Origin: a virus | Lineage: Duplodnaviria; Heunggongvirae; Uroviricota; Caudoviricetes | Direction: 5' to 3' (one strand) | Length of the DNA stretch: 30,877 nt | IMG/VR virus record: IMGVR_UViG_2778261069_000012 | Span: 1 to 30,877 of that record | Shown: one piece after another, positions 2,975 to 9,905 of the stretch | How the letters are laid out: the number at the start of each line of letters is the position of its first letter | Position numbering within the stretch: the stretch's first letter is position 1 | Notes under the pieces: generated by a model | Databases searched by the model: none | Seen by the model: the letters and a program-made list of their open reading frames with translations, nothing else | Told to the model about the DNA's origin: nothing | Translations under genes and position numbers: made by a program

Positions 2975-4879
2975 ATGAAACTGATTTCTAATAAGGCCAA
3001 ATTAAAAAAGATTCTCAGAAATGCAGCCAAATATATTACGCCACCGCCTAAGCTCCTTCCTTCTGAATGGTGCGAAGCGAATATGGTGCTGGTAGATGGT
3101 CCTCAAGCTGGGGATAAAGTTAAATTGCTGTCATTTCAGAAAGGTATGATTGATGCTCCTTTCCTTGAGAATAAGAAAAAATATGTTCTGATGACCAGTG
3201 CGCAGATCGGAAAGACTACCATCTTGAACGGTATCCTGTTTAACCAGATGGCTAACGATCCATGCAATATGATTATCGGACAATCAACCGCTAAAGAAAT
3301 GTCTCAATATCTCGCTGGTAAGATCCGACCGTCTATCGAAGCATGTGATGCATTAAAAGACGTGGTTACAGACAAGAATGATCGCAATGCTGTTAACAAC
3401 AATAACCAGCTACAGCTAAAAACGAATCACTTCCTATACATGGTATCGCTTACCAGTCCATCAACCCTACGTGGTAAGACCGCAAAGGTTGGATTGCTTG
3501 ACGAAATCGATGCTGCTACAGCCTCAGAAGAAGGTGATCCGGTGGCACTTGCTGCTAACCGTTTAACTACCTTTGGCGATGAAGGTCGATTAGTCGTATC
3601 CAGTACCCCGACCAGTAAGCTCGGAAGCATTAACCAGCAATGGTTATCAAGTGACATGCGTATGTTTTTTGTTCCGTGTCCTCATTGTGGGGAGCATCAA
3701 GTAATCGAGTGGGAAAACGTACAGTTTGAATGGCGTAACATCGATGGCAAGAACTTACCCGATCCTGATACCGCTCGTTATATTTGCCCACACTGTAAGC
3801 AATCATGGACAGAAGGGGAACGAATCAGGGCAGTAGCGCAAGGCGAGTGGAGAGCAACCCGTGAAAGTGAAGTAGCAGGATTCTGGATTAGCCGTCTGTA
3901 TTCACCTTTCAGCACGATCCGCGCTTGTGTGGTTGATTTTAGTCATGCGTGGCAATCCTTTGATTTACAATCATTTTATAACACCGTGTTAGGTAAGGTA
4001 TACGATGATCAGGACACGGCAGTAGAAGCAAATGAACTGGAACAACTCAAAACAGATGTTTCTATCGAGAATATCCCTGATGACGTGATTTTCTTGTGTT
4101 CGGGAATTGACCAGCAATTGGACCGCGCAGAATCTACCATCTTAGGTGTCGCGAAAGATAAGGTTTACATTCTGGATCACCGCAGCTTTTACGATCATAA
4201 CTGTGAACGATATGAATCACCTGTATGGGATAGATTAATCAACTTCCATAAAACCAAATTTACTACTGTATCGGGTGATCGTGTTCCTATGCTCGCCAGC
4301 TTCCTTGATACATCGAACGGTCGATTCACTCAAGCTGGATACCGTATTTGCGGCAAGTGGAAGAACTTACACGCTATCAAAGGTAGTTCTGCTGGTAACG
4401 CTCCGATCATTCCGGTTAAACCTACCCGCACAGGTGGTCATGAATTGCTTATGTTGGGTGTTAACGTGGGTAAAACTGCATTTCGTGAAATGTTGGCTAG
4501 GAACCTGAAAGATAATCCTCATATTGGCTTAGAAATATCAGACACCGTTCCTGATGATTATCTCGATCAGCTTTTAAGTGAATCTGTCAAGCGTACTACT
4601 ACTGGCGTGAGATGGGTAAAGAACCCAGGCGTTAGGAACGAGGCGCTCGACTGCGCCGTGTATGCTACAGCGGCTTCTCGCTACGTCCTTTCAAAAATGT
4701 CATGGGATAAACTCATTGCAATGAAAGACAGCTTAAACCGTGTTGTCGAAGAACCCGTAAAAGCTCCTAAATCGCAATCTAACGAGCAAATCGAAGAAAC
4801 TAAGCCAATCACACGACCGCAACGTCAAAACATCGCCAGACGCCCAAATAGAGGCCGTAGCTGGGTAACATCGTTCTAA
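2975..4879 (+). CDS. terL: terminase large subunit, lambda GpA-like family
   Basis: 634 aa; P-loop-like [10 protein letters not shown] near the N-terminus; CPHCGEHQ ... CPHCKQSW zinc-ribbon pair; position upstream of the portal gene; SD GAGGGTAA. Confidence 0.88.
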
Positions 4880-7013: not shown

Positions 7014-9017
7014 ATGCTTAAATTTCGCCGCGATCTTAACGGTTACGGTGGAGTTATTAATGAAGGGCATAACGATCAATACGAATTTGAAATTGCTTTC
7101 TCAAGTACACAGCCTTATCAGCGCCAATTTTGGGATGAGCAAAATCAAGAAATGGTGGTATTAGATGAAATTCTGGTACATACACCGGAAGCGGTTGATC
7201 TGTCTCGTCTGAATAATAACGCTCCGTTGCTGTTCAATCATAATTTCGATAATCACATTGGTGTTGTTTGTAACGCTCGAATCGATGCGGATAACGTAGG
7301 TCGTGCTCTGGTTAAATTCTCCAAGCATGGGACTTTGGCTAATGATATTCGTAATAAAGTCATTGAAGGTACGATGGAAAAAATTTCTGTCGGTTATGAC
7401 ATTAAAGAATATCACATCGATTATGCCAAAGGACAATTGATTGTTACTAAGTGGGCACCCTATGAACTCTCATTTGTCACCGTTCCCGCAGACGATACGG
7501 TCGGTTTAAATCGCTCTCTAAATACTATCACAGTTAATTTGGAGGCTAAACGCGATATGACTAAAGAACAAATCGAAGAAATCAAAAACGAAGAACCCGC
7601 TCAGGTTGAAGAAACTCCGGTAGAAGAAAATAAAGAACTGGAAGTTGAAGAAACTCAAGAGCGCCAAGTTGAAGAGAATAAAGAAAATGAAAATCTCGAA
7701 GACGGAAAAGACGCTGAACATCCTGAAAGTGTTGATGATGATAGTTCAACTGTTCGGGAAACAGAAGAAGTAAAAGAAGAACGTGAAGCCGCTCCGATTG
7801 AAGAAGAAAAAATCGAAGAAGTGGCTGAACGTTCCGAAGAAGACGAATTAGAAATCCGCGAGATCGCGCGGGAACTAAATATTGACGACGAAGAGTTAAA
7901 ACGCGCATTGGCAATTAAAGACATGACGCCGGAAGCATTCCGAACTAAGGCACTAAATAATCTTGTCAATGCTCAACGTAATAACGAACAACAAATTAAG
8001 GACTCTAAAATGGAAAAAACTTTTGACCTGAACAACGTAATTCGCTCTCTGGTAGATGGTGCTGCTCTGGGTGCTAACGAAGCTGAATATTCCGCAATGG
8101 CTGCTACTGCAACTATGCAGCGTGGTCGTGCTGCTCGTGGTGGCTCTGTATTCGTTCCGGCTGCTGCTATGCGTGCTGCTTCTGCTGGTAACACCAAAGC
8201 TGACCTGACCGCTATCACTGACGAAAAACTGATGACTGAATCCTACATCGAAATGCTGATGCCGGAATCTGTTCTGGGTCGTCTGGGTGTGACTGTTTAC
8301 AGTGGCTTGAACTCCCCGACCGCTATTCCAAAAATGACTAAATCCAGCGTTGACGCTTTCGGCTTCGTTGATGAAAACGGTGCTGCACCGGAAAGCAAAG
8401 CTGAATTTGCGAACGTGAAACTGTCTCCGAAAACTTTTGCTGGTGGCAACCCGATCAGCCGTCAGTCGCTGAAAACCGTTCCGGGCATCGCTACCCTGAT
8501 CACCGATCACATTAACAAATCTGTTCGGATCAAACTGGAACAACTGATTCTGTCTGATAAAGAAAATGCTCGTGGTCCGGCTGGTCTGGTTAAGCAACTG
8601 GTAGACGCTAGCCGCGTTACCAAGAAAGCTGCTTTCTCTTATAAAGATTTCCTCAAGGAGATTGCTCAGCTTACGGACGCTGGCGTTCCTGCTCAGGCGA
8701 TCAAGTTTGCAATGAGCGGTGCAACTGCTGCTGAACTGGAATCTACCCTGAAAGATAACGGCGTTTCCGGTTATATCATCGAAAACGGCAAACTGGCTGG
8801 TTACGAAGTAGTTACTTCTGGCGTTATCCCGGCAGACCACATCGTTCTGGGTGACTTCTCCGGTATTACTATCGGTGAGTGGGGAGGTCTGGAACTCGAC
8901 ATGGATCTAACTACATATAGGGATCGTGGTGCGGTAGTGCCTCGTATCTTTGTAGATTTGGACTACGTTGTAGCACAGCCGGAAGCCCTGAAAGTTCTTC
9001 ACATCTCCGCTGAATGA
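7014..9017 (+). CDS. prohead protease / scaffold-like linker / major capsid protein fusion (HK97 fold)
   Basis: 667 aa; N-terminal about 170 aa with LLFNHNFDNHIG motif typical of HK97-family prohead proteases; E/K-rich acidic linker (aa 185-300); C-terminal about 340 aa capsid-like; position after the portal gene. Confidence 0.78.
   Translation: MLKFRRDLNGYGGVINEGHNDQYEFEIAFSSTQPYQRQFWDEQNQEMVVLDEILVHTPEAVDLSRLNNNAPLLFNHNFDNHIGVVCNARIDADNVGRALVKFSKHGTLANDIRNKVIEGTMEKISVGYDIKEYHIDYAKGQLIVTKWAPYELSFVTVPADDTVGLNRSLNTITVNLEAKRDMTKEQIEEIKNEEPAQVEETPVEENKELEVEETQERQVEENKENENLEDGKDAEHPESVDDDSSTVRETEEVKEEREAAPIEEEKIEEVAERSEEDELEIREIARELNIDDEELKRALAIKDMTPEAFRTKALNNLVNAQRNNEQQIKDSKMEKTFDLNNVIRSLVDGAALGANEAEYSAMAATATMQRGRAARGGSVFVPAAAMRAASAGNTKADLTAITDEKLMTESYIEMLMPESVLGRLGVTVYSGLNSPTAIPKMTKSSVDAFGFVDENGAAPESKAEFANVKLSPKTFAGGNPISRQSLKTVPGIATLITDHINKSVRIKLEQLILSDKENARGPAGLVKQLVDASRVTKKAAFSYKDFLKEIAQLTDAGVPAQAIKFAMSGATAAELESTLKDNGVSGYIIENGKLAGYEVVTSGVIPADHIVLGDFSGITIGEWGGLELDMDLTTYRDRGAVVPRIFVDLDYVVAQPEALKVLHISAE
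7556..7900 (+). repeat. low-complexity acidic E/K/V-rich linker inside the capsid fusion ORF
   Basis: Reiterated GAAGAA / EE(x)K(E) motifs; generates spurious antisense ORFs. Confidence 0.6.
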
Positions 9018-9151
9018 ACTCCTGTAGAACCATCTGAACCTTCCCCCGATTTGGGGGAAGAAAATCTGATTCCTAAACCGGAAGAAGATTCCCAGACGGT
9101 TACGGCGAAAGCCACAGTTAAAAAACAACGTAAAACTAAAGAATAATAATT

Positions 9152-9178
9152 AGCCCTGCCTAACGGTGGGGCTTTTTT
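9152..9178 (+). terminator. rho-independent terminator downstream of the capsid gene
   Basis: AGCCCTGCC / GGTGGGGCT stem (two G.U pairs), TAAC loop, then TTTTTT. Confidence 0.7.
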
Positions 9179-9208
9179 GTATGTAAATACTCCATAAAGG
9201 GGGTAACT

Positions 9209-9499
9209 ATGTTCAAATTATCAGAATCACAATTATCAAGAATGTTCCGAAGTGCTCCTGTATTTTCGGTGGAAGGTGGTAAATCAATTCGTGCTTATCA
9301 TGAAATTACCACTACCGACGAACAAGGGGTAATTACAGAATCAGAATTTCTATTTTGTCGTGAGGGAGACTTAAATCAGGGTGATGTTGTCATTGTAGAC
9401 GGTGAACGCTTCAAAGTTCAATACGTTAAGCGCAATGGTGATAATACTTCTGATTGCTTTATTGCTCGTGCAGGGGGTACACATGCTCGCTACCGTTAA
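9209..9499 (+). CDS. hypothetical protein, head completion or head-tail joining candidate by position
   Basis: 96-aa ORF with SD AAGGGGGTAA; between the capsid and tail genes. Confidence 0.5.
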   Translation: MFKLSESQLSRMFRSAPVFSVEGGKSIRAYHEITTTDEQGVITESEFLFCREGDLNQGDVVIVDGERFKVQYVKRNGDNTSDCFIARAGGTHARYR

Positions 9500-9905
9500 T
9501 AATATGCCTAGACTGAAAATCAAACGCGCCTTGCAGGATATTATCGAACAAGATTTAGGTCTGGCTTTAAACGTAGAACAAACTCAGCAAGGCTTTAGTG
9601 ATGACGTGGTTTGTTGGATTACTGGCATGAATGAGACTTACACAAGGGTCCGTGGTGGTAATGCAATGCAAGCTGAATGCGTTATCGAAATGCAGTTGTA
9701 TTCTCAGAATCATGAAACCAAAATTCATGAGGGTATTTGCCAGATAATCCAGATTCAGCCTGATAATCCACGTTTTAAAGATTTGGGCTTCTCTATTTCA
9801 GATATCACTCCAGTAGCTTCTAATACCGATTATGACGATGATTCTAGTGATGGGGGTATCGTTGGGACACTTAGCCTTAAATTTTCTTATCTAGCGCGTT
9901 TTTAA
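9483..9905 (+). CDS. hypothetical protein, head-tail connector or tail completion candidate by position
   Basis: Start chosen at ATG 9483 (SD AGGGGG 5 nt upstream) rather than the SD-less ATG at 9402; overlaps the previous ORF by 17 nt. Confidence 0.5.
   Translation: MLATVNNMPRLKIKRALQDIIEQDLGLALNVEQTQQGFSDDVVCWITGMNETYTRVRGGNAMQAECVIEMQLYSQNHETKIHEGICQIIQIQPDNPRFKDLGFSISDITPVASNTDYDDDSSDGGIVGTLSLKFSYLARF

Follow-up and report, generated by a model that had tools for sequence, protein, structure and literature searches.

A conserved in-frame extension beyond the UGA stop of a prophage capsid gene is a candidate for programmed read-through

We analysed a 30,877-nt stretch of tailed-phage DNA (Caudoviricetes; positions 1 to 30,877 of IMG/VR record IMGVR_UViG_2778261069_000012), referred to here as the window. 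Its HK97-type major capsid gene ends in UGA, after which the same reading frame stays open. A sequence-only reading of this DNA had drawn attention to that layout and proposed low-frequency stop-codon read-through, or a frameshift, as a source of a C-terminally extended capsid variant. Having compared the locus with its relatives, we regard programmed UGA read-through as the probable explanation. The features concerned are as follows.

7014-9017, plus strand: open reading frame (ORF) of 667 amino acids ending in TGA, with an S78 prohead protease, a scaffold-like acidic linker and a major capsid protein of HK97 type.
9015-9018, plus strand: stop that may be leaky, UGA followed at +4 by A (UGA-ACU).
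9018-9143, plus strand: in-frame extension of 42 codons, in which a basic tip (TVTAKATVKKQRKTKE) comes after an acidic linker rich in Pro and Ser (TPVEPSEPSPDLGEENLIPKPEEDSQ).
9144-9149, plus strand: tandem stop TAA TAA closing the extension.
9152-9179, plus strand: intrinsic terminator with a 9-bp stem, a 4-nt loop and a T-run; the stem-loop, AGCCCTGCC-TAAC-GGTGGGGCT, lies at 9152-9173.

The 667-residue ORF matched two Pfam families, both above their curated cut-offs: PF04586 Peptidase_S78 (Caudovirus prohead protease; residues 40-162, E = 2.4e-10) and PF05065 Phage_capsid (residues 409-663, E = 5e-26). It is thus an HK97-type capsid protein fused to an S78 protease. The PF05065 match runs to profile position 279 of 280, so that the capsid fold ends naturally at the TGA (9015-9017). 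RefSeq relatives of the ORF carry the annotation 'phage major capsid (family) protein', and the solved structure nearest to the capsid domain is 8gta_A, a major capsid protein (E = 2.8e-24). The capsid C-terminus reads ...VLHISAE before the UGA; beyond it, 9018-9143 reads TPVEPSEPSPDLGEENLIPKPEEDSQTVTAKATVKKQRKTKE, with the peptide stretch TPVEPSEPSPDLGEENLIPK, and the 42 open codons described by the sequence-only reading are all there. That reading had closed the extension with TAATAATAA; a tandem stop is indeed present, but it consists of two stops (TAA TAA TTA, 9144-9152). The intrinsic terminator lies past the extension, as had been reported, and is conserved among relatives, with 1-nt indels in its loop.

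Taken alone, an open frame of this length proves little. Inter-stop stretches of at least 42 codons make up 7.2% of all such stretches in the window, and 10% of dinucleotide shuffles of the extension leave frame 0, the capsid frame, open. The earlier estimate of a one-in-ten chance was therefore right for one sequence; because chance accounts for ~7-10%, the single-sequence observation is not significant, and only the comparison with relatives is. Codon usage, scored as a log-likelihood trained on the other genes of the window, gave +14.5 bits for frame 0 of the extension and at most +1.7 bits for the other five frames, four of which were negative. Across the 31 genes of the window, TAA is used 28 times and TGA three times, and the capsid gene holds the sole TGA-A. 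The other two are TGA-T, each with a second stop no more than three codons away, whereas the capsid TGA has no back-up stop for 27-45 codons across the copies. Judging by its frequency of optimal codons (Fop, 0.86), the capsid region appears to be translated more heavily than the rest of the window.

So far the element is known only from prophage copies. A megablast search of 7014-9200 against GenBank phages returned no match, and scans of genome contigs, one genome per species, detected no relatives. As a chromosomal prophage it is present in 55 of 5,426 complete Escherichia coli genomes (~1%) at 80-96% identity, and further copies are found in IMG/VR; E. coli H2 (NZ_CP028733) and CE0007a (NZ_CP119011) are examples of lysogens with an intact copy. 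We collected 22 copies from RefSeq and 36 from IMG/VR, of which two were left unscored: L009 (NZ_CP122923), where a 1-nt deletion in the A-run just upstream of the TGA shifts the capsid frame, and L044 (IMGVR_UViG_2877285697_000006), where the capsid frame is disrupted. With the window, this gave 57 scored copies. There were 35 distinct sequences among the first 49 copies, and 27 distinct extensions (haplotypes) among the first 45 loci. Some copies of the prophage are decaying; besides L009 and L044, two hits (H58 and H60) carry IS1A or IS903B insertions in the capsid gene.

Conservation of the frame in homologous phages had been set beforehand as a check. In 57/57 scored copies, the capsid stop is a TGA with A as the next base, and frame 0 then stays open up to a tandem stop. 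Frames +1 and +2 after the TGA were open in none of the 27 haplotypes and contained 50 and 118 stops in total, respectively, while frame 0 scored highest by codon usage in 27/27. The extension varies in length among 27, 28, 33, 42, 43, 44 and 45 codons (81, 84, 99, 126, 129, 132 and 135 nt), and all six alignment gaps within it (48, 27, 3, 3, 3 and 3 nt) are multiples of three. In contrast, the non-coding stretch from the tandem stop to the next start measures 64, 65, 66, 67 or 68 nt through 1-nt indels, although it is otherwise more conserved than the extension. The difference in in-frame gaps (6/6 in the extension, 1/5 in the downstream spacer) corresponds to a Fisher estimate of p ~0.015.

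The two ends of the extension are also maintained. The codons flanking the stop vary (GAA, GAC or GAG before it, ACT or AAT after it), whereas TGA-A is constant, and in the 35 distinct sequences the TGA is never replaced by TAA and never has a nearby back-up stop. At the far end, the tandem stop in 45 loci is TAATAA in 42, TGATAA in two and TAATAATAA in one. Several copies use TGA TAA (among them L007, L008 and L088-L090), and a 3-nt TAA duplication in L045 and L160 has created a third in-frame stop; the double stop is never lost. A second capsid allele, with only 37% protein identity to that of the window, occurs in seven copies (L006-L008, L088-L091). Its capsid proteins end in ...KKVD, ...KKSD or ...KKGE, followed by the same TGA-A and an in-frame extension.

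The extension keeps its composition, an acidic, proline-containing linker and a basic tip, but not its individual residues. Its tail variants QRKTKE, ERKTKAK, VGRPPKAK, AGRPPKAKE and GRKPKE are all basic. Because these variants are combined with different linkers, recombination has taken place inside the extension, and it has never broken the frame. An IMG/VR pattern search with the conserved core of the extension found only contigs that had already been collected, and thus no other context. The VGRPPKAK and AGRPPKAK(E) alleles (e.g. L003, L013 and L023) matched the Pfam AT_hook family PF02178 at 14.2-14.7 bits (E 0.03-0.04), under the cut-off of 17.4. An AT-hook identity for the basic tip was rejected, as the matches are sub-threshold in some alleles and the window tip, KKQRKTKE, has no match.

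The RNA downstream of the UGA is predicted to be structured, with the following elements.

9028-9101, plus strand: predicted forked stem-loop domain of ~74 nt, with the closing helix AACC.UCUG / CAGA.GGUU.
9040-9060, plus strand: 8-bp G+C-rich hairpin CTTCCCCC-GATTT-GGGGGAAG, invariant in long-type extensions and absent from short-type ones.
9104-9113, plus strand: GGC-GAAA-GCC hairpin with a GNRA loop, in 23/23 aligned haplotypes.

The minimum free energy of 9015-9150 was -38 kcal/mol, compared with -21.8 +/- 3.0 for shuffled sequences (z = -5.3); a short-type extension gave z = -4.8, and six other haplotypes gave -2.8 to -4.8. In all eight folded haplotypes, the 5' strand of the closing helix is predicted to begin at +14 (counting the U of UGA as +1), after a 10-nt spacer. 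Short forms close with AAUUGCCGGAA paired to UUCCGGUAGUU; the position of the helix is shared by the 27-, 28- and 33-codon forms, and the 48-nt and 27-nt indels fall inside the stem-loop domain. The predicted folds point to the closing helix at +14 as the conserved structural feature. We rejected the 9040-9060 hairpin as the stimulator itself, since it starts 22 nt past the stop and is missing from short-type extensions. The GNRA hairpin shows one compensatory change from C-G to A-U (L004) and one G-U. Covariation was limited to two pairs with double changes (three cells), a score reached by 1 of 500 shuffles. Compensatory changes from GGC/GCC to GGA/TCC and from GGTGG/CCACC to GGCGG/CCGCC altered amino acids and kept the pairs. 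These patterns point to a real RNA-level constraint superimposed on the open frame. An Rfam search over 8700-9400 (E up to 1) found no known RNA family; the lone match, to the terminator (E 0.4), was due to chance.

The stop itself resembles a known leaky one. The coat gene of phage Qbeta ends in UAC UGA ACU (PMC13517186), and the UGA-ACU hexamer is shared by 32 of 45 loci, including the window, where the context is GAA UGA ACU. Read-through of the Qbeta coat stop is ~5% (PMC7026636), with Trp as the inserted residue. The binding of release factor 2 (RF2) to UGAA is relatively weak (PMC5373646), and read-through of a plain UGA reporter in K-12 is 2-4% (PMC10570021). No suppressor tRNA was found in the window, a scan that covers all but a few kb of prophage lying beyond it.

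Based on these observations, we propose that the UGA is probably subject to programmed read-through, yielding a minor, C-terminally extended capsid protein with an acidic, proline-containing linker and a basic tip. Most ribosomes would terminate at the UGA (9015-9017) and release the normal major capsid protein. A small fraction, presumably well under 10%, would insert an amino acid there, most likely Trp through near-cognate tRNA-Trp, translate the 42 further codons and stop firmly at TAA TAA. The signal may consist of the weak UGA-A (within the Qbeta hexamer UGA-ACU in most copies), the acidic last residue and the stem-loop domain, whose base, 10 nt past the stop, would sit at the mouth of the ribosomal mRNA channel. 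The resulting minor species of capsid protein would bear, at its C-terminus, a flexible appendage in which an acidic spacer rich in proline leads to a Lys/Arg-rich tip. HK97-fold encapsulins have outward-facing C-termini; by analogy with these and with T7 10B, the outside of the capsid is probably where the tail is displayed, in a few copies per particle. Assuming ~400 capsid subunits, read-through of ~0.25% would suffice for ~1 extended subunit per particle. Electrostatic or DNA-type binding may be suggested as candidate functions of the tail. The stem-loop domain predicted in all variants and the identity of TGA-ACT with the leaky Qbeta context strengthen the case for read-through. Zero-frame conservation, the constant TGA-A, the in-frame gaps and the tandem stop all support what the sequence-only reading had proposed, with translation itself predicted from sequence.

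Several observations weigh against programmed read-through. The ratio of nonsynonymous to synonymous differences (pN/pS) in the extension is 0.67 over 27 haplotypes or 0.75 over 42 loci, compared with 0.27 in the capsid domain, and changes are spread evenly over the codon positions (16, 21 and 23); because of these two features, substitution patterns alone do not show coding. Stop avoidance over ~60 substitutions is only mildly unlikely by chance (P ~0.07), and the haplotypes are related and recombining, hence non-independent. The gap bias is open to another origin, as repeat-mediated deletions in a once-coding, GAA-rich sequence favour multiples of three, and RNA-level constraint could account for part of the conservation without translation. 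No long form, with the TGA replaced by a sense codon, came up when the capsid C-terminus, W and extension served as the query; the four matches all stop at the TGA position, with 67-69% coverage. The Prokaryotic Genome Annotation Pipeline (PGAP) marks nothing at the extension in the RefSeq copies. Furthermore, we know of no RNA structure established to stimulate read-through in bacteria. Where RF2 is the variant typical of non-K-12 strains, no UGA read-through products of nudL and pheL can be detected (PMC5373646). Unless the structure has a stimulating effect, the natural hosts may for this reason show very little basal read-through.

One alternative is that the extension is an untranslated relic, either a 3' untranslated region (UTR) left when a nonsense mutation truncated the capsid gene or an accidental open frame; it would be tolerated without serving any function, and would still be open only through the close kinship of the copies. 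The substitution data suit such a relic (pN/pS ~0.7, no third-position excess, stop avoidance at P ~0.07), as do the recent shared ancestry and recombination of the haplotypes and the 7-26% of trials in which a single sequence is open by chance. Yet we consider a relic improbable: six of six gaps are in frame while the adjoining spacer has 1-nt indels, the TGA was never swapped for the preferred TAA or backed up in 35 distinct sequences, the far-end tandem stop is maintained, and the module stands in frame behind two capsid alleles that are 37% identical. The tail variants QRKTKE, ERKTKAK, VGRPPKAK and GRKPKE, moreover, are uniformly basic. We judge similarly doubtful a structured 3' UTR that acts only as RNA, whether as a stem-loop array shielding the capsid mRNA from 3' exonucleases or as a source of a 3'-UTR-derived small RNA. 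Folding is indeed stronger than in shuffles for every haplotype (z -2.8 to -5.3), the GGC-GAAA-GCC hairpin is found throughout, pairs are kept by compensatory changes at the expense of amino acids, and nucleotide divergence in the extension (0.145) is lower than synonymous divergence in the capsid gene (0.28). However, an untranslated RNA gives no reason for frame 0 to be free of stops while +1 and +2 hold 50 and 118 in the 27 haplotypes, for indels to be confined to multiples of three, or for a UGA-A upstream and a tandem stop downstream; the covariation is also thin (two pairs, three cells), and there is no Rfam match. A role as RNA and read-through are not mutually exclusive, and the structure fits read-through as its stimulator.

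The remaining alternatives concern how the extension might be decoded. TTG-started ORFs are listed at 9051-9146 on the plus strand and 8907-9128 on the minus strand, and the antisense frame that is in register with the codons stays open in 25 of the 27 haplotypes, but a separate coding unit, be it a small gene with its own start or the 73-amino-acid antisense ORF at 8907-9128 (TTG start), appears very unlikely. Frame 0 of the extension contains no ATG or GTG, the TTG has no Shine-Dalgarno sequence before it, and it is replaced by TCG in L007 and L089 and by CTG or TTA at the short-type position; because no start codon is conserved, internal initiation is excluded. The antisense ORF, which is interrupted in two haplotypes and scores -14.5 bits, would cover part of the capsid C-terminus in a direction opposed to that of the operon. 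Selenocysteine insertion at the UGA, with the downstream hairpin as a bacterial selenocysteine insertion sequence (SECIS), can be given hardly any weight. A stem-loop is predicted ~10 nt past the UGA, and in bacteria a SECIS takes the form of a stem-loop immediately 3' of the UGA (PMC7026636). Against this, no Rfam family matches at E up to 1, and no relative has Cys at that position; they either end in TAA or go on with unrelated residues. The apical loops, GAUUU or GAAA, differ between long and short types, so there is no conserved SelB-binding loop. Finally, access to the extension by frameshifting is extremely unlikely in the window. The capsid extensions of T7, T3, A2, A118 and PSA arise in that way (PMC5009743), and more distant relatives, described below as group C, have an A-rich slippery patch with a -1-frame tail. 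In the window and its close relatives, however, frames +1 and +2 are closed in 27/27 haplotypes and a shift would lead away from the extension. Because the extension is in the zero frame, the frameshift offered by the sequence-only reading as an alternative to read-through is not needed here. Among all these possibilities, programmed UGA read-through is the one we favour.

Two further features of the region are as follows.

8010-9014, plus strand: major capsid protein domain, 335 amino acids; ATG 8010, which AAGGA precedes, is probably an internal start.
9209-9499, plus strand: next gene, 96 amino acids, weakly matching a gpW-type head-tail attachment family; it bounds the intergenic stretch.

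Within the capsid ORF, Fop is 0.86 for 8010-8879 and 0.58 for 7014-8009, compared with 0.53-0.59 in the other genes of the window; the G+C fraction is 0.49 from 8010 on and 0.40 in the protease/scaffold part. Since codon bias jumps at ~8010 and AAGGA precedes ATG 8010, the sequence suggests a nested start, which would supply much capsid protein alone and little of the full protease-scaffold-capsid fusion. In the final 45 codons of the capsid gene (8880-9014) the strong codon bias is gone (Fop 0.65), and among relatives the synonymous difference (pS) is 0.42, compared with 0.26 in the rest of the gene. This segment may be a recombination boundary or may be under relaxed or different selection just before the stop. 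Upstream of the capsid ORF lie a lambda-family portal gene and a large terminase gene. The two genes past the terminator (9209-9499 and 9402-9905) overlap; the ORF from 9402 is a longer, GTG-started form, and RefSeq relatives are annotated with a start for this second gene 17 nt inside the first. Elsewhere in the prophage, L004 (NZ_CP042903) carries a GIY-YIG nuclease gene at 3944-4353, where other copies start a long tail-fibre gene; this is possibly a homing-endonuclease insertion.

Distant relatives end the capsid gene differently. Those without a long extension end it in TAA. A Salmonella relative (52% identity) has the tail ...VMKAPAGRSK fused directly to the capsid protein, then TAA and a terminator. 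In group C (~41% capsid identity), some members likewise carry short fused tails before TAA and the terminator (...KGTPAEAKAAKQ and ...KGTPAEVKAALKASA; group C tails include ...GTPAEAKAAKQ-TAA). In other members of the group, TAA is followed by a gap to the terminator in which the -1 frame alone is open, coding for ...DTGAQAAPVRKPRALKVTK or ...NTGEQASPAKVKKPRALKVK. The -1-frame ORFs of L086 (2478-2562), L123, L080, L078 and L085, from IMG/VR and metagenome relatives, comprise 21-33 codons, overlap the last 6-12 capsid codons and extend to the terminator, encoding Ala/Pro/Lys-rich tails. Three codons before the TAA, L086 and, independently, the metagenome contig L123 have the in-frame heptamer A_AAA_AAG, which we take to be a dnaX-type slippery site; L085 has A_AAA_AAA. 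A hairpin, CAGGAGCA/UGCUCCUG in L086, becomes CAGGAGAA/UUCUCCUG in L080 by compensatory change. The -1-frame ORFs are thus candidate -1 frameshift capsid extensions. The data are few, yet they agree with the known tendency of related phages to arrive at capsid extensions by different ways of decoding (PMC5009743), and similar tails gained by other routes count in favour of read-through at the window locus. No extension was found in high-G+C relatives at 25-31% identity.

A further relative, L124 (Escherichia phage DCP80, PQ671644.1), is a 141-kb record classed as a T4-like Gaprivervirus. At one end (~1.7-13 kb) it contains the lambda-type terminase, portal and protease-capsid module of the prophage family of the window, with a capsid 64.6% identical to group C. 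This arrangement suggests that the record is a chimeric assembly. To read through its post-capsid tail, the frame has to change twice around an A7 run, and homopolymer errors are possible there.

Taking the close and distant relatives together, we tentatively consider a more specific scheme, which is possible but clearly less likely than read-through as such. A bipartite bacterial signal, Qbeta-type UGA-ACU with a forked stem-loop 10 nt downstream (an arrangement otherwise known from alphaviruses and coltiviruses), would decorate an HK97-type capsid with a few flexible tails, and sister lineages would reach the same end by -1 frameshifting at A_AAA_AAG or by fusion. If correct, it would give bacteria their first described case of near-cognate stop read-through stimulated by RNA structure, and double-stranded (ds) DNA phages their first capsid extension made by read-through. 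The textbook phage example of read-through is an RNA phage, and our literature search found no read-through capsid extension in dsDNA tailed phages. In bacteria, read-through is regarded as rarer than frameshifting (PMC5373646). Read-through at this locus would extend the mechanism to tailed DNA phages by way of widespread E. coli prophages, and would flag a product missed by annotation pipelines. It would also offer an E. coli test system for the stimulation of near-cognate tRNA read-through by 3' RNA structure on bacterial ribosomes and, for phage engineering, a natural low-copy display site at the capsid C-terminus.

The candidate system can be compared with several known ones. In E. coli itself, nudL and pheL show zero-frame UGA read-through that gives an extended protein without a SECIS (passages of PMC5373646 and PMC10570021). 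Those passages attribute the effect to the weakened RF2 of K-12, with read-through absent in the presence of RF2-B, and they report no conservation of the extensions, whereas the extension studied here keeps its frame among natural isolates. In animal viruses, the stem-loops known to stimulate UGA read-through begin between +9 and +16, at the edge of the mRNA channel (PMC13517186). These type II signals, found in alphaviruses and Colorado tick fever virus, consist of a UGA, a spacer and an extended or forked stem-loop, and the predicted helix at +14 falls within their range. They differ in acting on eukaryotic ribosomes with eRF1 and in having C at +4 (UGA-CGG or UGA-CUA); the prophage stop is bacterial, read by RF2, with A at +4, and its structure would play a stimulatory role only by inference.

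By mechanism, stop context and host, the closest system in function would be the coat/A1 pair of Qbeta, a single-stranded RNA coliphage. Its coat gene ends in a UGA within the same hexamer (UAC UGA ACU, compared with GAA UGA ACU here), the stop is read by near-cognate tRNA-Trp at ~5%, and the minor extended coat species, made in the same host, has an extension that begins proline-rich. In contrast, Qbeta has an RNA genome of 4.2 kb and its coat fold is unrelated; its extension of ~196 amino acids contains a folded domain needed for infectivity, whereas that of the prophages, at 27-45 amino acids, looks disordered. A downstream RNA stimulator is entered as 'ND' for Qbeta (PMC13517186); here one is proposed from sequence.

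The frameshift-derived capsid extensions (T7 10A/10B, T3, Lactobacillus A2, Listeria A118/A500/PSA) also belong to dsDNA tailed phages with an HK97-type capsid protein. In that class one gene gives two products and the minor extended form enters the capsid (PMC5009743), as is predicted here, and the recoding route varies among relatives (PMC5009743), much as group C carries a -1-frame tail behind A_AAA_AAG. The extension in the window, as its sequence indicates, is not a member of this class: it would be reached by zero-frame stop read-through and not by a -1 or +1 shift, and it is short and of low complexity, whereas the extensions of T3 and A2 carry an Ig-like domain. In its biology, the closest counterpart would nonetheless be T7 10B, a minor extended form of a tailed-phage capsid protein.

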